Below, one piece after another: positions 17,364 to 32,728 of a DNA stretch of 64,000 bases (positions within the stretch are counted from its first letter, which is position 1; each line of letters begins with the position of its first letter). The DNA is from an uncultured delta proteobacterium. GTDB taxonomy: Bacteria; Desulfobacterota; Binatia; UBA9968. The stretch spans positions 1,051,951-1,115,950 of the forward strand of contig CAVSHR010000005.1 in assembly GCA_963727625.1 (NCBI GenBank), given 5' to 3'. A program made the translations under genes and the position numbers. The notes below the pieces were generated by a model that saw nothing but the letters and a program-made list of their open reading frames with translations, did no database searches and had not been told where the DNA came from.

Positions 17364-17420
17364 AGGGGCCGGACCGCTTCGGACTATCTCAGAAGGCTAG
17401 AACTGATCAACTCCAGACCC
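17364..17420. mobile_element. Solo or internally deleted end of the RAYT-like element
   Basis: ggactatctcagaaggctagaact (17381-17404) is identical to 21945-21968, then tcaactccagaccc as at the element end; no transposase. Confidence 0.75.
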
Positions 17421-17714
17421 TAATTCTTGATTCTGCTTGACGAATCCTTGTCAAGAGATGAAACCAGGGTCATGCCGGGACATTTAGGGCAGGCTTCTCT
17501 TCCGCCAAAGTCAACGACGAGCACGAGAAGACCAAAAAGTGTTGACCATCCTTTGCGTCGAGTGTAATTTACACCCGGAAAAAATGGTCTTCGCCGCTCC
17601 GTGGCCCTTAGTCAGCTTGGTAACAGCAGGCGATAGCACCTTCACGATCGGATGATTCTTTCACGGCTATGGGGGTCAATAGCCATGAACGCGTCAGAGA
17701 AATGGTGGTGACCA

Positions 17715-19124
17715 ATGATTTTTAAAAAATTACACCGCTTCACAAGCCCGACGCGATCGATGCTTCGGGTATTTGCACTAGGCATCGCTATTGGCGCAAT
17801 CCCCTTTTTTGTTAAACCAAGTACGTCAAGCCCGCCGATACTTCCCGACAACACACCTTTTTTTAATTCCAGCGGTTTTGCCGTTACGCTCAACACCAAT
17901 GGTCCCATCGATTTATCAAATGATTTTTTTCAAACTCTTGGAACCAATGGCCGGAGCTGCTCCACCTGCCATAGGATCCAGGCGGGATGGACAATCACAC
18001 CGGAAGATGTCCAGGCTCGGTTCGAAGCTACCGGAGGAGCAGATCCTATCTTCCGCTTGAACGACGGCTCGAACTCTCCCAACGCCGATGTGTCTACGAT
18101 CAGCGCGCGCCGGCAGGCTTATAGCATGCTTCTCAGCAAAGGACTGATTCGCGTCGGGATCGGCATTCCTGAGAACGCAGAGTTTGAGCTAGCGGCGGTG
18201 GATGATCCATATCAATTCGCGAGCGCCACCGAGCTGTCGTTGTTCCGGCGTCCCCTGCCCTCTACGAATTTAAGATTTTTGAGTACTGTTATGTGGGATG
18301 GACGCGAGACCTTTACGGACAAGACGATCCACTTTGATCTGCGGAGCCAGGCCGACCATGCCAATCAAGGCCATGCTCAAGATCCGAATCCGCTGACGGA
18401 TGCGCAGCAAGAGAGCATCGTGAACTTTGAGACAGCGCTTTTTACCGCTCAAGCGTATGATAATAATGCCAAATCCTTGATTGCTGTCGGAGCTCAAGGT
18501 GGACCCAGGCAATTGTCTTCCCAGGATTTCTATATCGGCATCAATGATCTTTTTGGCGATAGCGTGACGCAAGAGCCTTTTTCTCCGATCGTTTTTACTC
18601 TTTACGACGCCTGGAAGGACTTGGCAGGCGGCATCAGTAATGCGAGGGCGGCGGTTGCTCGCGGTCAGGAATTATTTAATACCAAATTGATCAAAATCAC
18701 CGATGTGTCAGGCATTAATGACGAGGCGGCATTCGGCAATCCTGCCGTGGTCAACGGAACTTGCACGACGTGTCACAACAGTCCTAATGCAGGAGATCAT
18801 TCTGTTGCCGCGCCGCTCAACATCGGCATCGCGGATGCCGGTCGGCGGACACCTGATATGCCTCTTTATACTTTACGAAACAAGGCTACCGGGGAGACGA
18901 TCCAGACGACGGACCCCGGACGAGCGTTAATCACCGGAAAATGGAAAGACATCGGCCGCTTTAAAGGTCCTATTCTCCGAGGACTCGCCGCGCGAGCTCC
19001 CTATTTTCATGACGGATCGGCAAAGGACCTTGAGAAGGTTATCGATTTTTACGATCAACGTTTCGGTATAGGCTTTACCGAGCAAGAAAAGAGTGACTTG
19101 ATAGCCTTCTTGCGAACGTTGTAA
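17715..19124 (+). CDS. Di-heme cytochrome c (bacterial cytochrome c peroxidase/MauG superfamily), exported
   Basis: Two CxxCH (CSTCH, CTTCH), MWDGR, DPGRA, FKGPILRGLAARAPYFHDGSA and an N-terminal hydrophobic segment. Confidence 0.85.
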   Translation: MIFKKLHRFTSPTRSMLRVFALGIAIGAIPFFVKPSTSSPPILPDNTPFFNSSGFAVTLNTNGPIDLSNDFFQTLGTNGRSCSTCHRIQAGWTITPEDVQARFEATGGADPIFRLNDGSNSPNADVSTISARRQAYSMLLSKGLIRVGIGIPENAEFELAAVDDPYQFASATELSLFRRPLPSTNLRFLSTVMWDGRETFTDKTIHFDLRSQADHANQGHAQDPNPLTDAQQESIVNFETALFTAQAYDNNAKSLIAVGAQGGPRQLSSQDFYIGINDLFGDSVTQEPFSPIVFTLYDAWKDLAGGISNARAAVARGQELFNTKLIKITDVSGINDEAAFGNPAVVNGTCTTCHNSPNAGDHSVAAPLNIGIADAGRRTPDMPLYTLRNKATGETIQTTDPGRALITGKWKDIGRFKGPILRGLAARAPYFHDGSAKDLEKVIDFYDQRFGIGFTEQEKSDLIAFLRTL

Positions 19125-19164
19125 GCGGATCGAGGGGTGGCTAAGGGGTCAAGTATGGAGTTAG

Positions 19165-20986
19165 GATTCTGCTGAAAAACCCTCTTGTAAATTGTTTTTG
19201 ACTAGCGAAGAAACGAATCATCGTTGAAAAAGTGAGTGGCAGTCTTTAATTTGCATACATGAGCGTACAACGCATGGATTCACAGCGGAGTTTTTATCAC
19301 ACGAGTTTTGTTTGCGGCGAGCTGTTCGGTGCGGCCGACCGATACCGGCTGTTTCGGGAAAAGATATTTCCTCAGCTCTTAGCGCTTCGAGTGGCAGTTA
19401 GAAACGCTTTACTGCGAGAACAATGGTCGGCCGGCGATCGATCCGGTGCTTTTGTGCGGGGTGACGTTACTGCAATTCATGGAGAAAGTGGCGGATCGAA
19501 AAGCAGCCGAGCAAGTGGTCTATCATCTGGGCTGGAAGTACGCCTTGGACTTGGAGCTACCCTACGAAGGCTTTCATCCGACAGTGCTGGTTTATTTTAG
19601 GGATAGGTTGGAGGAGAAAAAGGCTGCCCGGGTGGTGTTCGACGGGATTGTAGATTTATTGATCGAACTGGGACTGATCAAGCGGGCGGGCAAGCAGCGC
19701 ATCGATAGCACCCATATCTTAGGCTACGTCAAAGAGATGAGCCGATTGGAATGCGCGGCAGAGACGATACGCTTGGCGTTGGAGGAGTTGGCCGGAGTGG
19801 TTGCCAGCAAGCGGCCAGTGTTCTGGGAGAGGCTATGGTCGCTGTACGTTCAGAGCGAAGTGGGATGGCGGTTGAGCAAAGCCGAGCGCCAAAGCCGTTA
19901 CCGCCAATGCGGCCAAGACATCATGGAGCTATTGGAGTGGATCGACAACCAGGATGGCAAGCTTGGTGAGATTGAATCGGTGAAACTATTGCGCCGGGTG
20001 TTTGAGGAACAGTTCGAGGTCATCGAGGGCGCCATCCAAACGCGCCGCACCCGGCCGTCACGATCGGTGCAGAATCCCCATGATCCTGGTGCCCATTACG
20101 CCGACAAGGGGACCAAGCAGTGGACTGGCTACAAAGTCCACGTGGTGGAGAGCGTCGATCCAGAACAGCCAGCCAAAGTCAAAGCCGAGCCCGGCGAGCA
20201 TTTTATTACCGAGATTTTAACCACCGAGGCGGCCGAGAACGAAAAGACCGGTTTGGCCGAAGCGCTCAAACGGCAACAACACCACCACGAGATCAAACCC
20301 CAGGCGATCTACGCCGACGCAGGTTATGTGACCGAGAGCACTTTGTCGCAAGCCGAAGGCAACGCGATGGAACTTCTCGGGCCGACCCGTCCCGATCCCC
20401 ACAAAGGACCGTATAATGCCGACGGGTTTGTTGTCGATGTGGAGAACCAGCGGGCGGTGTGTCCCCAGGGAAAGACCAGCACTCAATGCAGCCACATCAA
20501 GGATAGCTACATGGGCAGCGAGTACTACCGTCTGGAGTGGGGTAGCCAATGCGACGGCTGTCTTGTGCAAAAACAATGCACTCGCGCCAAGAGCGGACGC
20601 AGAATCCTGGTAGTTGGCTTACGCCACGATCTGGTCGAGAGGCGGCGCAAGGAAATGAAACAGGCGGAGTACTCCGTAACCATGCATCCCAGAAACGGGA
20701 TCGAGGGAACCCATAGCGAGTTGGTGCGAGGCCATGGGCTGCGACGAACTAAATATCGGGGTTTCAACCGAGTCACCCTGTCGCATTACTTCATGGGTGC
20801 GGCCTGCAACGTGAAACGATATTTAAGACGGCTGGCATTCCAGATCGAATTGGCCACTCTCACCCCGGCGTAAGAGCAAAGAATGAGGGTTTTTCACACC
20901 TACGGCACGCAGCGATCAAAATTATCACTGGCACAACTACAGCCACCGATCAATCACTTTTTACAATGGGGTTTTTCAGCAGAATC
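19165..20986 (+). mobile_element. IS1182-family insertion sequence, 1822 bp
   Basis: Perfect 18-bp TIRs gattctgctgaaaaaccc (19165-19182) / gggtttttcagcagaatc (20969-20986), extendable to 27 bp with 2 mismatches. 7-bp direct repeat GAGTTAG at 19158-19164 and 20987-20993. Confidence 0.93.
19259..20873 (+). pseudogene. IS1182-family DDE transposase with a +1 frameshift near 19391-19395
   Basis: ORF 19259 (MSVQRMDSQ...LLALR) continues in the +1 frame as QLETLYCENNGRPAIDPVLL into ORF 19446..20873, which has IDSTH, GYKVHV, ADAGY and RNGIEGT motifs. Confidence 0.8.
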
Positions 20987-20989
20987 GAG

Positions 20990-28900: not shown

Positions 28901-31287
28901 GTAACGGTGGAGGGAAATGTTTGGCTGGATTCAAAGACAGTGGCAGTCGTGCAGCTCCGCGCGTCGGTCACCGACGTGCGATTGCCGTACGCGTCGTAGC
29001 TGTACGTAACCGTCGGGTTGCCTGCGTTTCCGATATTGCCGGCTAAGCGCGATTCTTCTTTTGTGACCAGGCCCCGCGTCCCGAGTGCGCCGTAAGCGGC
29101 GTTGTCGTAGTAAATCCAGCGCTCGCGCACCGTCGCCCCGGTGTTATCGAGGAGCGCCGTTCGCTTGGGGCGGTGAATCCAGTTGGCACTGTCAACGATC
29201 CATTCGGTGACTTCGGTTCTTTCATCGCCCGTGGTGGCCACGTCGCCCAGATCATTTTTCTGGGTCGGGTTGCCGTTAGTGTCGTAGGTGAACGTCTCGG
29301 CATTTTGGTGGCAGGTGGCCTGGCCTTCGCACTCGTAATAGTCCGTCCGTGTCAGCGCCACGAAGGTTACGCCGGTGTAAGGATTCGACGTGGTAAAAGT
29401 GTTGACGACTTTGTTGTAGAGGGCGCCGGCGGCGCTGCGCGTTTCGATCTGGTAGGGGCGGCCCTTCTTGATGTCGTCTTGGTAAAACCATGTATCGGTG
29501 TAGTTGCCGATGGGATCGATGGCGCGGACTTTGGCGTGGCCGCGAAATTCTTTGCGATCGGCGTTAACCGCAGGGTTATAGTAGGTGAAGTTTGTGGTCG
29601 AGCTCCAGCCGAGCCCATCGCTCATCGTGCGGCTAATAACCCGGTGTCGTGTGCGGTCTACTTCTCCCGGGCGGACATAACCATGCAAACTCCCGCCACA
29701 GTTTCCTGGACCGCTGGTGGAAAATCCGACGAAGTCACAGTTGCTGTTAAAATCCTCGTCCCAAACGTCATAGAGCGCTACCGCATCGAGCACGTTTGAA
29801 GTATACGGGTAGCCATGCAGACTCCCGCCACAGTTTCCCGGACCGCTGCTCGACAGTCCGGCGAAGATGCAGTTGCTATTAAAATCCTCGTTCCAAACGT
29901 CATAGAGCGGAAGTGTGCCGGCTGCGCTTGACGTCAGCACAACGCCGTGCGAAGTCCACTGACACTCAGTGTCGGTACGAGTGTCGGTCAAGCCGCTGAA
30001 AACACAGTTGCTGTTAAAGTCTTCGTACCACACGGAATAAAGCGACTTGATCTCCTCGTAGGCGAAACTCACCGATCCGCCGATGCCGTTGGTGGCGCTG
30101 GCTAGCACCGTGCCGACATAAGTAAAGGACCGGGGCGGTAAGGCGGAGGTTCCGTCACTGCCGATCGGCGTGACGCTTGTCAGCGTGAGATCGCCGGCGG
30201 CGCCGCCTTGCCAGGTTTGGTTGGGGTCACGGTCAATCGAGTAGTCGTATCCGAAATTGTACCGACGCACCAAGCTATTGCCGACGCGGACCTCGATGGC
30301 ATCGAGGCGGTAAAGCTGGTGATAAGAGGTGTGCCAGTCCGGACTGGTGTCCTTCCAGTCGGTTCGATTGCCCCGAATAAACGTCACCGTGCGGCTGTTG
30401 CCGACGAGCGAGCCGGCGTAGTAGGCATAAGTGATGGTATCGGGATAGACCGCCTGATCGTAAGCCTTGTTGTTGTAACTTGAGCTTTGCTTGAAGTAGC
30501 TATATCGGACGGAAACGCCGCTGGTTGTCGAAACCTCATCGACGAAATAACGAAAAGTGACCGGCACTTCAGTGTTGAGCGCGAAGGTGAGCCCCGTGGC
30601 GCGGCTGTTGGAAGTATAGCCGAAGCGGTGTGTGGTTCCGTCTTTGGTCCTTACCGTCCAGTAATCGCCGCTTGAAAAATAGTTGATCTTCCAAAACGTT
30701 TCATCCTTGGTCCGATAGCTTCCGCTGCCGATAGACACCAAATCATAGGTATGACCGCCGAAGACGAGCTTGAAGCTGTCGTCCGACGTGCTGGTTGAAC
30801 CTTTGGTATCTCGAACGATGAACCCACCAGTGTCCAGGCTCCAGCCGAGGCCGGTCCAATCGGCTTGATCGCGCTCGCTGTTGTTGCCCATGTCATCAAC
30901 AACGCCGCTGTTGTAATTGAGCAAGATCTTCGGCGCGATGCCGGCCGCTCCTGGCGGAACCAATATTGGAATCTCGGCGCCGGCTGAGCCGGTGAAAAGA
31001 TCGGCCTGGAAGGATTGAATATTAAAACCATCGACTGAGGCGCCGAGACCCGCCGTTGCTGCGCTAGTCGTAACGGTTGCACCTGGCTTGGTCGGTTTCT
31101 TGGTTGTTTGGTTCGCGGCACTCGACGCGGCTGATGTTGTTTGAGTTGAACTTGCGCTGATATGCGACGCCTCTGAAGAAGATTGATCAACAATTGCTAT
31201 CAGGAATATTAGGGCCGCCACTTGAAATAGATGGGAGAGCATAGGTTGTTGCGAGATTGAAAAAGTTCCAAGCCTGTGAGTGATCAT
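25969..31287 (-). CDS. Large Rhs/YD-repeat polymorphic toxin (signal peptide, SpvB/TcB-like N-terminus, Rhs core, colicin-M-like tip)
   Basis: SpvB-like DLFTGSA..IPILVPPG...GLGWSL, TcdB-midN-like RKEFRGHAKV, many YD repeats, core YHNDHLGS/RFTGQKLDPESGLYYYGGRYYD/NNPQNYIDPDG, and a strong SD (GGAGGCGAGGAG). Confidence 0.93.
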   Translation of the reverse strand: MITHRLGTFSISQQPMLSHLFQVAALIFLIAIVDQSSSEASHISASSTQTTSAASSAANQTTKKPTKPGATVTTSAATAGLGASVDGFNIQSFQADLFTGSAGAEIPILVPPGAAGIAPKILLNYNSGVVDDMGNNSERDQADWTGLGWSLDTGGFIVRDTKGSTSTSDDSFKLVFGGHTYDLVSIGSGSYRTKDETFWKINYFSSGDYWTVRTKDGTTHRFGYTSNSRATGLTFALNTEVPVTFRYFVDEVSTTSGVSVRYSYFKQSSSYNNKAYDQAVYPDTITYAYYAGSLVGNSRTVTFIRGNRTDWKDTSPDWHTSYHQLYRLDAIEVRVGNSLVRRYNFGYDYSIDRDPNQTWQGGAAGDLTLTSVTPIGSDGTSALPPRSFTYVGTVLASATNGIGGSVSFAYEEIKSLYSVWYEDFNSNCVFSGLTDTRTDTECQWTSHGVVLTSSAAGTLPLYDVWNEDFNSNCIFAGLSSSGPGNCGGSLHGYPYTSNVLDAVALYDVWDEDFNSNCDFVGFSTSGPGNCGGSLHGYVRPGEVDRTRHRVISRTMSDGLGWSSTTNFTYYNPAVNADRKEFRGHAKVRAIDPIGNYTDTWFYQDDIKKGRPYQIETRSAAGALYNKVVNTFTTSNPYTGVTFVALTRTDYYECEGQATCHQNAETFTYDTNGNPTQKNDLGDVATTGDERTEVTEWIVDSANWIHRPKRTALLDNTGATVRERWIYYDNAAYGALGTRGLVTKEESRLAGNIGNAGNPTVTYSYDAYGNRTSVTDARSCTTATVFESSQTFPSTVTNCLNHQSTMAYDERFGVMTSQTDANNQTTTSTYDVFGRVTKITGPLDGSSTYGTVSTFYLNWGNPSLQRVTAYRTEQHGTGNYISSEAYFDGLGRNYQSAQEGPGGQAIVSETFFDSRGLEWRTSAPRFTTETAVWTEFLYDVLGRQTRVNFPDGTNAQTAYDHHEVIATDPRGKIKRTYTDSHHRVIQVEEVNSGASYFTTYQYDAADSLTKVTNNAGHNTLNAYDYLGRKIAMCDPNMGTASSLTTCSTSTPGAWVYTYNLAGDLLTQKDAKNQTLTFTYDSLGRPLTKKQGSTTLVAWTYDDAAVPYSKGRVTQIVDQATTTKFAYDQLGRTTQTQRQLLGVWHTMAQSYDALGRITSETFPDSETVTYTYNEAGWLSSAPGYINAVTYNARGQKTALTYANSLTTTWTYNAANFRVTNRTTSNNQQNLAYGYDNNGNVTSITDSLFTASRTFGYDDLNRMISGSGTFGTNQSQQNCTYTYNAIGNLTDKCGAVLSYSDANHPSAVTNHSGLSKNYSYDANGNMLARGNQTLTWDIDNRVSSIAIAGGGSTSMEYDYAGVRVKKNAPGGTTIYPFAGYEIDPNGVITKFIRIGIENFASKRGTNKYFYHNDHLGSVNVITDIAGTRVQLNEYDPWGSVSRTEGTIDPTHRFTGQKLDPESGLYYYGGRYYDAETGRFVSADPFVQTPLDPQNLNRYSYVVNNPQNYIDPDGYFHRHKKKGGFFNSIFGKIFRIVFNLAFIAAGLPPGADFGFGLGTAFALGDIGHSLAGIQSDLQNGGLSAAPPDGSLIPGLSHAGGGGFFSPALQLAVEAGCDVCSDARLDLLRLLISGKENGTDLPTTLILPGLFFMRGALPGRPDIARVPFSSLDTGAQPEQFPGFTRSAADLAPGSARQLRLSLQVDTGSLRTGTSTLLLEGTLAKDPSGNLSFEGFVSGRREAFNFDKPGFANAVGRRLPGRDFLIEFVGQRPVRFPR
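26563..27554. repeat. 992-bp direct repeat, copy B (inside the main Rhs gene)
   Basis: Matches 23310-24301. Confidence 0.92.
29675..30045 (-). repeat. Three ~44-aa Cys-containing repeats inside the Rhs N-terminal region
   Basis: LYSVWYEDFNSNCVFSGL..C..SHG / LYDVWNEDFNSNCIFAGLSSSGPGNCGGSLHGY / LYDVWDEDFNSNCDFVGFSTSGPGNCGGSLHGY. Confidence 0.9.
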
Positions 31288-31416: not shown

Positions 31417-31750
31417 GAATCGATTCCGGCCCGTTGCCTTTGGCGGGGGAATTAGGCGGAGAGAAGCGGACGAAATAATGAGGCTTGCAGCAAGAAATTT
31501 AAATTGTTGCCCAATCGAAATAACGCAACCTTGGTTGCATCTCGTGTCAACCAGGATTGCGGATATGTAAACCAGAGTTGCTCCAGTTTATCTGCCTTCA
31601 TTTTGCAACTTTCGAAACTTTCACGACTCGGGAGTCGGTTCCTCTCTATTTACGGGTTGGTATGACATTTGCGTTTTTGTGCGGGCAAAGTCCGAGGTTG
31701 TTCAAATAACTTGCAGAAATATTCATAGTCATCGTGAAGGAAATTGTGGC

Positions 31751-32728
31751 ATGACTCTCGATAGAATTCGATTATTCATTTGTGTCGCTAAGAATCGGAG
31801 CATTAGCCAGGCGGCACGCGAGCTTGGCATTAGCCAATGCGCGGCCTCCCGTAAACTGCAACAGCTTGAAGTCAAGGTTTCCTCCAAGCTGTTCGAGAGA
31901 AAAGGAGGCGGCATGGAACTGACCGCTTCGGGTCGGACGTTTCGGCATGAAGTCTCGTCGCTCTGGTCACAGTTTGAAGAGTTGGAGAAAAGATATACTC
32001 CGAGCCGAGATTCTCTCACCATCGCGGCCAGTCATCGTCCCTCGAAATACCTACTGCCGAGGCTAATGATAGAGTTTAGTAAAATGCGTCCTTCGGCGAA
32101 ATTGACTTTACTCACCCGGAGCAGCGTGGAAATTGAGAAACTGCTGTTGGAGTCCAGAGTTGATCTCGCGATCACCAACAATGTTAATATGTCAGGTACG
32201 GCCTTTTTCACCGAGCCCTATTCTAGCGAGCCACTAACCGCATTCGTTGCAACGAGCCATCCATTGGCGAAAATGAAATTTGTGCAAGCGTCGAACGTGG
32301 GCACGGTTCCGCTCATCGTCAAATGTCGACGCGAGGGTGAAAGCAGGGTTGAGGCACAGCTGGGAAAATTTGAGAAAGGAGGAATGAAATTCAAAGTCGT
32401 GATGCGCTGCGAGTCTCCCGACGTGGTCAAGGAATTTGTCAGACACGGGGCGGGTGTAGGGATCCTGTATTATGATTCAATCAAACGGGGAATAGAGCGT
32501 GGGGAATTTAATGCGATCCAATTCCCACGGTTCGATCTCAAGGGGCAAAATTACATTGTTTACTCCAAGGACAGGCCGCTCTCCCCTCTGGCACGGGAGT
32601 TTCTATCGCTGCTGCGCGCTTCGGTGGCGCAGAATGCGCCGATCAAACCGATGGTGCCTCAGATCTCGTACCGACGCGACAACGGTGGGGCACGGGATCA
32701 CATTCTCCGATCCAAACTTCTATACTGA
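31751..32728 (+). CDS. LysR family transcriptional regulator
   Basis: [31 protein letters not shown]...LTASG plus a substrate-binding domain; ATG at 31751. Confidence 0.9.

Follow-up and report, generated by a model that had tools for sequence, protein, structure and literature searches.

When the cassettes of a polymorphic-toxin array break off at the ends of a mobile element, has the element created, delivered or pruned these cassettes, or does it simply sit among them? The question is raised by a Rhs locus in the 64,000-nucleotide stretch analysed here (GCA_963727625.1, contig CAVSHR010000005.1, positions 1,051,951 to 1,115,950; hereafter the window), which comes from an uncultured delta proteobacterium of the Binatia and in which a sequence-only reading had noticed RAYT-like HUH transposase elements at the cassette breakpoints. 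The region is a locus of Rhs polymorphic toxins. Its one expressed-type gene is accompanied by one complete orphan cassette and the stump of a further one, and two intact TIRtrons (elements built around a single TIRYT gene) and one solo TIRtron end are interleaved with them. The link between TIRYT genes and Rhs loci is real, but it belongs to this lineage and this Rhs type and not to the family at large. The explanation that we favour, with about an even chance of being right, is that TIRtrons settle right after toxin-immunity modules and provide there junctions and homology arms for ordinary recombination.

A Rhs toxin locus interleaved with TIRtrons

The features of the locus, from the main gene through the array and then to its neighbours, are:

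25969..31287, minus strand: main rhs gene, 1772 aa, with a TcB-like N-terminal part, YD/RHS repeats and a core ending in PQNYIDPDG
C-terminal end of main rhs, minus strand: tip1, 262 aa after DPDG
26531..27554, minus strand: main-gene copy of the core repeat (H), 1024 bp, which pairs with the orphan core
25406..25972, minus strand: imm1, presumed immunity gene of tip1, 188 aa, with a hydrophobic N-terminal segment, overlapping the rhs stop and unique in the genome
24302..25373, minus strand: TIRtron 2 (RAYT2 of the sequence-only reading), TIRYT gene 24330-25277, 315 aa
22686..24302, minus strand: orphan rhs fragment, 538-aa open reading frame (ORF), core copy 23278-24301 followed by tip2
C-terminal end of orphan rhs, minus strand: tip2, 272 aa after DPDG, its first 77 residues common to tip1
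22270..22689, minus strand: imm2, presumed immunity gene of tip2, 139 aa, membrane-like
21997..22199, minus strand: third cassette remnant, the last ~150 nt of a Rhs core (22050-22199) and ~35 codons of tip3
20987..21996, minus strand: main part of TIRtron 1 (formerly RAYT1), upstream terminal inverted repeat (TIR) 21973-21990, TIRYT gene 20990-21937, 315 aa
19165..20986, plus strand: IS1182-family insertion sequence (IS), 1822 bp, transposase 19446-20873, 37-nt inverted repeats, 7-bp target duplication
19128..19164, minus strand: displaced downstream end of TIRtron 1, TIR 19145-19162 and one stutter unit, 86% identical to 24297-24333
17375..17437, minus strand: upstream end, standing alone, of a third A-type TIRtron, with 81% identity to 21939-22001 over 63 nt
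17715..19124, plus strand: di-haem cytochrome c peroxidase/MauG-like gene (CCP_MauG 6.6e-07; MbnH-family 2.4e-15), convergent with the array
31679..32728, plus strand: LysR-family regulator, divergent from rhs

Scans of ORFs and domains confirmed the array order of the sequence-only reading, namely full-length rhs with tip1, imm1, TIRtron 2, orphan core with tip2, imm2, core remnant with the start of tip3, and TIRtron 1, all on the minus strand. Its other anatomical claims also held: the homology between orphan and main core (23278-24301 = 26531-27554, 99.5%) stops at 24301, where the TIRtron 2 stutter AAGGGGTCGGGAAGGGGTCAAG begins; cassette 3 is cut where it meets the upstream end of TIRtron 1, at about 21990-21996; both transposases are intact and co-oriented with rhs; and a solo element end lies beyond the cytochrome gene. 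In that solo end the homology stops at the start-codon position, the gene being deleted from there on. What the earlier anatomy overlooked is the IS1182-family element, which sits directly after the TIRYT stop codon of TIRtron 1 and splits it, so that the true downstream end of TIRtron 1 is 19128-19164, adjoining the cytochrome gene. The target duplication of this IS, CTAACTC, stands at 19158-19164 and 20987-20993; its transposase matches DDE_Tnp_1_6/DUF772 in Pfam and has NF033551 transpos_IS1182 as its best family (4e-69), at 233.8 bits against an equivalog cut-off of 270. Its relatives in the genome are an 84%-identical full-length copy (C5:294185-296009), two ~74% relatives and a 201-bp end fragment.

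The assignment to the Rhs/YD polymorphic toxins is based on YD/RHS repeats (Pfam RHS_repeat 5e-44; TIGR03696 Rhs_assc_core 1e-22) together with a core ending in the PxxxxDPxG motif, which reads PQNYIDPDG in all three window cores; SpvB and TcdB_toxin_midN gave weak matches in the N-terminal part of the main gene in the Pfam scan. As judged from sequence, the architecture is that of Rhs orphan cassettes, with a variable tip, a small presumed immunity gene and 5'-truncated copies of core, tip and immunity gene downstream. The core remnant of the third cassette, 85% identical to the other two window cores, abuts the upstream end of TIRtron 1. Neither the two tips nor imm1 and imm2 matched any family in Pfam or NCBIfam scans. 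The N-terminal half of the main rhs also holds three tandem ~132-bp repeats, 78-87% identical, at 29678-30044.

The elements described earlier as RAYT-like do encode a Y1 HUH protein, but they are of a known kind, TIRYT/TIRtron, and not of a new one, and no REP family goes with them. In the passages available, TIRtrons are defined by RAYT-like Y1 proteins flanked by TIRs with GGGGWSAS (Di Nocera et al. 2013, PMC3733652), and TIRYTs form subclass 2.1.2 of TnpA_REP, with a Bac_DnaA_C, HTH_23 or HTH_28 tail and no REP nearby (Quentin et al. 2018, PMC6006769). The TIRtrons seen here are ~1.03 kb long and consist of one TIRYT gene flanked by ~18-20-bp inverted repeats that begin with GGGGTCA; beyond these lie short G-rich stutters that vary. 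The two window proteins (315 aa each, 93% identical, 92% at the nucleotide level) match Pfam Y1_Tnp at 1.6e-13 and 1.9e-14 and Bac_DnaA_C at 1.2e-09, and a PDB sequence search, in which the DnaA domain alone matched, aligned chains of DnaA domain IV with the TIRYT tail at 1.7e-06. The HUH motif and the catalytic tyrosine (H60, H62, Y119) are invariant in seven paralogues, and TIRYT paralogues in the genome carry an HTH_23 tail. The REP_Tyr_transpos model NF047646 scored 72 bits (cut-off 80), versus 17 bits (cut-off 55) for the IS200 model NF033573.

TIRtron 2 has its upstream TIR at 25312-25329, with an outer stutter of four CAATTGGGGG units to ~25373, and its downstream TIR at 24314-24331, followed by two GACCCCTT units (24302-24313). 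The A-type inverted repeat is imperfect, GGGGTCAA(A/G)T(C/A)TGGAGTT, and fits GGGGWSAS at 7/8 positions, while the A-type outer stutter GGGGTCAG fits it at 8/8. A second subfamily in the same genome, B, has a protein 33-34% identical to A, stutters GGGAATA/GGGAGA and a perfect 18-bp TIR, GTCAGGCCTGAGTATTGA, with AGG before it. All in all, at least three TIRYT subfamilies, 33-42% identical, occur at Rhs loci.

Two other identities were considered for these elements and rejected. A REPtron (RAYT/REP) was discarded for lack of hairpin folding and of an abundant dispersed repeat family: five single TIRtron ends fold no better than shuffles (z 0 to +1.25), and in the genome the A-type TIR is confined to element copies or remnants (7 matches at <=3 mismatches), the 28 B-type-like matches being mostly element ends as well. 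A tandemly duplicated end in the metagenomic locus L158 folds well (z -4.99), by pairing of its two copies. An IS200/IS605 element was rejected on the grounds of the TIRs, a 315-aa protein with a helix-turn-helix (HTH) tail and the IS200 score below its cut-off.

The two window TIRtrons differ at a synonymous divergence (dS) of 0.22 with dN/dS 0.14; they are old copies that were kept functional and no fresh products of transposition. A TIRtron fragment at another locus of the genome, C2, is ~10% diverged from both; identity along the TIRtrons is even (90-97% throughout), and no mosaic or recombination tracts were resolved inside them.

TIRYT genes near Rhs loci

The sequence-only reading had proposed to test for an enrichment of the elements within 5 kb of Rhs-core genes; such an enrichment was seen in this genome, its relatives and metagenomes, but not in the wider family. 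In the genome itself all five Rhs-core loci have a Y1 gene at <=5 kb and four of them at <=2 kb, whereas random placement of five loci gave a mean of 0.26 and reached five in 0/200,000 trials. In 12 published genomes of relatives a TIRYT gene accompanies 7/18 Rhs-core loci, with ~0.07 expected from 49 TIRYT matches in about 76 Mb; this count excludes two Rhs loci of the unpublished genome G005, and 2/11 of the TIRYT-negative loci have less than 1.5 kb of downstream sequence. Among metagenomic contigs recruited with the window Rhs core, many of them too short to show a TIRYT, 9/64 carry one (8 if two near-identical contigs are merged). As a control, transposases of IS1182, IS110 and IS256, the families present at the Rhs loci of this genome, were found at 1/18 loci of relatives and 0/64 metagenomic ones, that is at 1/82 as compared with 16 for TIRYT. 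On the other hand, among TIRYT loci of other phyla (homologues 34-55% identical) a Rhs match lay in the flanks of 1/80, and most of the ~30 Y1 loci of the genome itself are in unrelated contexts; both observations restrict the link to this lineage and Rhs type.

Position and orientation are biased too. Sixteen of the 20 independent Rhs-linked TIRYT loci are co-oriented with rhs, and at eight co-oriented loci the TIRYT starts about 0.75-1.5 kb past the core end, a distance that a tip and its immunity gene would fill; at L160 and L191, also co-oriented, it starts ~2.5 kb past it. Of the seven TIRYT genes of relatives, six lie 0.75-1.3 kb past the core end and one beside a core stump; 5/7 are co-oriented.

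A universal boundary motif, comparable to the attC of integrons, was also considered and rejected: a GGGGTCA-type motif occurs at 8/72 orphan starts (within -350..+60; the definition of an orphan was loose, many of the 72 being diverged full-length genes) versus 273/5000 random windows. Clear cases of the motif before orphan starts are L147, L151, L181, L183, L184 and L190. Solo TIR-like sequences with stutter stand 20-180 bp upstream of orphan cores in L190 (5674-5820), L151 (4392-4540) and L147 (376-410), on contigs that carry no TIRYT gene; the one in L190 is an inverted doublet 125 bp apart, MITE/REPIN-like.

As to the neighbouring genes, the cytochrome c peroxidase/MauG-like gene at 17715-19124 is outside the Rhs system, and a recurrent di-haem peroxidase beside TIRYTs was rejected, since the window protein and the neighbour at C5:959k are only remotely related. 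The LysR regulator beside rhs is a candidate for control of the toxin genes; such a regulator lies divergently upstream of rhs at 3/5 Rhs loci (window 31679-32728; L031 15926-16480, at C2; C5:968790-969710), its C2 copy being shortened.

Cassette breakpoints and their explanations

The other Rhs loci of the genome supply further junctions. The C8 array has no full-length rhs and all its parts are co-oriented: at its start the 3' fragment of a B element adjoins a 5'-cut rhs that has a tip and a DUF4279 immunity gene; there follow a 5' fragment and a complete B element, an orphan core with its tip, another B element, a pair of tip and immunity gene, and one more B element at the close. At C2 an A-type element is cut after 409 bp and followed by two orphans; this locus is a paralogue of the window locus or comes from a co-binned strain, and it may be a strain variant because the genome is rated 6.3% contaminated. 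C4 consists of a 182-bp core stump, then 14 bp, then a B element, and C5:959k of a different Rhs, an immunity-like ORF, IS110 and a third TIRYT type.

The claim made from the window, that cassettes break at element ends, holds at independent loci and for elements of two subfamilies. In TIRtron 2 the right end joins the core exactly at 24301, and that of the B-type element C8c joins an orphan core ~24 nt farther into the same conserved stretch (YDDLNRMI...). C8e has its right end in contact with the YD-repeat region of a 5'-cut rhs, and that of C8b lies 4 nt from the start of the tip2 toxin domain, cut at residue 119. Upstream ends are found 20-75 bp after the immunity gene, or else interrupt the tip just past the end of the core (window tip3, C4). 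The core of L158 is cut inside NNPQ by an A-type element in inverted orientation, whose end is tandemly stuttered. At C2, L175 and L183 the junctions fall inside the TIRYT gene and look like plain deletions. None of the TIRtrons at Rhs loci has the contiguous flanks that a simple insertion would leave, whereas IS1182 does. No target motif common to the junctions was found. Mimicry of the TIR word GGGGTCAA by the codons of the core end (IDP = ATT GAC CCC) was considered as well and rejected, TTGACCCC occurring in 1/92 core-end-like motif matches, among which the codon choice at DP varies.

At 3/22 TIRYT loci of the genome, all of them Rhs-linked, a host repeat sets in precisely at the right end and its second copy stands upstream of the element: in the window (1024 bp, 99.5%), at C8c (830 bp, 92.8%) and at C4 (677 bp, 79%). 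The window repeat is 100% identical over its first 991 nt from 24301; its five mismatches are confined to the last 32 nt, by the tips. The C4 repeat (L033 8361-10974) is a 3-hydroxyanthranilate dioxygenase (3-HAO) gene duplicated (79% at the nucleotide level) around the core stump and TIRtron. A tandem 3-HAO was seen in 0/25 genus members with an orthologue (>=72% identity), each having a single copy at its locus, so that the C4 duplication arose along with the inserted unit.

Between the conserved parts the cassettes differ. The window and C2 have in common the main gene to 50 nt past the core end (93%) and the upstream end and 5' part of the TIRtron (90.7%), while the 1.2-1.35 kb between these arms (tip and immunity gene) are unrelated; a third cassette, that of L194, is enclosed by a related core and an A-type TIRYT of 84% identity. 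The tip2/imm2 cassette recurs in C8 between B-type elements (window 22258-23151 versus L030 6932-7825, 898 bp, 89% at the nucleotide level), with proteins 95% identical for the tip2 toxin domain and 76% for imm2; the immunity gene has diverged faster than its toxin.

These observations are consistent with a use of the elements mainly by ordinary recombination. TIRtrons of this lineage would land, or survive, preferentially directly behind toxin-immunity modules and within the 3' portion of rhs, mostly co-oriented with it. They would then act mainly as repeated conserved DNA which, together with the core, brackets each tip/immunity cassette and may give homologous recombination a second arm for cassette replacement, duplication, looping-out and re-integration. 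TIRtron insertions and recombination between copies would truncate neighbouring cassettes, and this would account for breakpoints at element ends. The expressed tip could be switched without a transposase, the 991-bp perfect core repeat that flanks tip1, imm1 and TIRtron 2 being a likely substrate for main/orphan recombination, and the same event would release a circle of core, tip1, imm1 and TIRtron. From the earlier proposal that the elements create, deliver or prune cassettes we would therefore keep the non-random link with Rhs and the ends at breakpoints; of the transposase itself acting we saw no sign, the RecA-type route already known, from core repeat to core repeat, suffices for tip switching, and arrays exist without the elements.

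Several points weigh against this explanation as well. The counts overstate independence, since the relatives are kin and the metagenomic loci were chosen via the Rhs core. The Rhs loci of the genome also gather IS1182, IS110 and IS256, so that part of the local enrichment may be a general sink effect. Homologous giant-Rhs loci of three relatives (G003, G017, G012) carry different TIRYT subfamilies, one of them inverted, which fits repeated insertion better than conserved arms. Three orphan arrays (L154, L172, L197) are without any TIRYT or TIR motif. The tip2/imm2 cassette lies between A-type elements in the window and B-type ones in C8, and cassettes are thus not tied to one element type. 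Junction positions are heterogeneous, a point that bears equally on the stronger claim of the sequence-only reading. No direct trace of a recombination event was seen; no public sequencing run contains the locus (best share 0.09 of its words; X1-X4 covered mainly the IS1182 part, from other organisms), and no close relative with an empty site appeared among the 30 genus members compared, in 29 of which rnr is conserved (74-84% at the amino acid level), the LysR flank being without a close homologue (best, one 37%-identical match).

Alternatively, the Rhs loci could be a passive sink, which we consider rather unlikely: the orphan arrays would be dispensable and often horizontally acquired stretches where any mobile element survives. 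On this view TIRtrons would be no more than the commonest small element of the lineage, whose insertion truncates the target and places the breakpoints at its ends. The number of Y1 loci elsewhere in the genome and the near absence of Rhs from TIRYT loci of other phyla agree with such a sink, as do the arrays formed without TIRtrons and the three IS families at the Rhs loci, which include the only IS256 copy of the genome and one of its two IS110 copies. However, the same families are nearly absent from Rhs loci of other genomes (1/82 against 16 for TIRYT), the link recurs with at least three divergent TIRYT subfamilies, and the TIRtrons favour a place directly behind the immunity gene and one orientation and, unlike IS1182, lack contiguous flanks. 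The IS control, these biases and the recurrence with several subfamilies make a purely passive sink less likely.

A catalysed traffic of cassettes appears unlikely. Here the TIRYT would nick the right end and resolve at a variable upstream point, in the one-ended manner of IS91/ISCR, or would join right ends to rhs targets; its products, which we regard as doubtful to the same degree, would be units or circles of 3' core, tip, immunity gene and TIRtron that integrate at a resident rhs core. In favour of it, exact right-end junctions meet variable rhs or tip points in four cases, and the three host repeats starting at the right end are the signature expected of a circle closed there and integrated by homology, most visibly at C4, where the 182-bp core stump, the 14 bp and the TIRtron stand between 3-HAO copies whose tandem duplication occurs in none of the 25 relatives compared. 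Two right-end/core junctions made by different subfamilies lie within ~24 nt of each other, 16/20 loci share the orientation, the TIRYT gene is under purifying selection, and the terminal stutters vary between copies as if the ends were repeatedly cut and rejoined. Against it, other junctions lie inside the TIRYT gene (C2, L175, L183), the element copies of the genome are 8-10% diverged and not near-identical as after recent transposition, the junctions have no target motif in common, and mimicry of the TIR by core-end codons failed. Put at its fullest, and with little confidence on our part, the proposal would make TIRYT the enzyme of toxin cassette traffic in this lineage: a HUH nuclease that would cut GGGGTCA ends and close units of 3' rhs core, tip, immunity gene and TIRtron at the right end, to be integrated at any resident rhs core. 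If true, toxin/immunity modules would be captured, stored in TIRtron-separated arrays and re-deployed, an integron-like or ISCR-like role built on a Y1 HUH enzyme.

Finally, an assembly artefact, with 1-kb repeats (core, TIRtron) mis-joined or C2 taken from a co-binned strain and the array order unreal, is very improbable: the contamination rating, the perfect 991 nt of the core repeat and public reads that did not span the locus (best share 0.09 of words) would allow it, but the contig is 1.1 Mb long in a 15-contig assembly, there is an 8% difference between the two TIRtron copies, the flanks of every junction are unique, and the architecture recurs in other contigs, genomes and metagenomes.

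Two further regions of the genome where TIRYT genes or fragments cluster, and one duplication at C2, are recorded here. At C9 (L114 8873-16737) a TctC-TctB-TctA-EamA-TctC transporter block lies between two co-oriented TIRYT genes in a composite-transposon-like manner and adjoins a Cas4-Cas1 fusion and Cas2. A cluster of three TIRYT fragments at C4 (L115 13730-15055) also contains a reverse transcriptase/maturase of a group II intron and a TIR-domain protein. At C2 (L031 16447-17276) a perfect 415-bp tandem duplication past the cut LysR gene contains two B-type TIR-like words (C2:453463, C2:453878).

Significance and known systems

In the passages available, PMC3733652 and PMC6006769 assign TIRYT/TIRtrons no activity, target or biological context and describe no gene-neighbourhood preference, 'Rhs' occurring 0 times in PMC6006769. 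In our literature search the names TIRYT and TIRtron were confined to these two papers, the elements being little studied, and no paper was found to link RAYT or TIRYT with Rhs or polymorphic toxins; the search covered titles and abstract starts of the matches listed, and the supplementary TIRYT gene lists, which lay outside its scope, may show Rhs neighbours. Each component is known by itself, be it the Rhs orphan arrays, the IS-like parts of Rhs elements or the TIRtrons; the TIRYT-Rhs link itself was not found in print. To our knowledge, no transposition chemistry has been shown for TIRYTs. A reproducible lineage-specific link with Rhs boundaries would be their first genomic context, and it supplies concrete DNA substrates. 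For the toxin system, a cassette has a conserved left arm, the core, but as a rule none on the right. A conserved element placed directly behind the immunity gene would fill this gap, whether or not catalysis is involved, and such a right arm could explain clean tip exchange and the growth of orphan arrays.

With IS200/IS605 elements the TIRYTs share the Y1 HUH domain, its HUH motif and tyrosine conserved, although IS200/IS605 elements have subterminal hairpins and no TIRs, and their TnpA of ~130-150 aa has no C-terminal HTH. IS91/ISCR elements capture neighbouring genes by a one-ended process and IS26 forms translocatable units, by means of Y2 HUH or DDE enzymes; the likeness to them is one of pattern only, in that elements border variable cassettes, one end is exact and the other variable, and circles of unit and element can integrate by homology. 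H-rpt, whose presence in Rhs elements parallels the IS-like component seen here, encodes a DDE-type ISAs1 transposase and not a Y1 HUH enzyme. This IS-like part of E. coli Rhs elements has long been known, and its transposition, according to the passages available, was never observed (PMC3032704).

Main/orphan cassette arrays of Rhs were reportedly also treated by Poole et al. in 2011. The Salmonella arrays, as described in the available passages, likewise consist of a full-length rhs followed by 5'-truncated modules of core, tip and immunity gene, and their orphans are activated by homologous recombination between main and orphan genes (Koskiniemi et al. 2014, PMC3967940). The core repeat shared by main and orphan gene is 1024 bp here versus 522 bp at 95% identity there (PMC3967940, same passages). 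In those passages a transposase or insertion sequence is mentioned 0 times, whereas in the present locus the 5' end of the orphan is the end of a mobile element and the cassette lies between core and element.

The closest likeness is with the TIRYT/TIRtrons as described in the passages available: a single Y1 HUH gene longer than that of RAYTs, a C-terminal HTH, TIRs instead of REP hairpins, and few or no solo repeats. What sets the present elements apart is that several subfamilies stand at Rhs cassette boundaries, in tandem arrays and with variable stutters.

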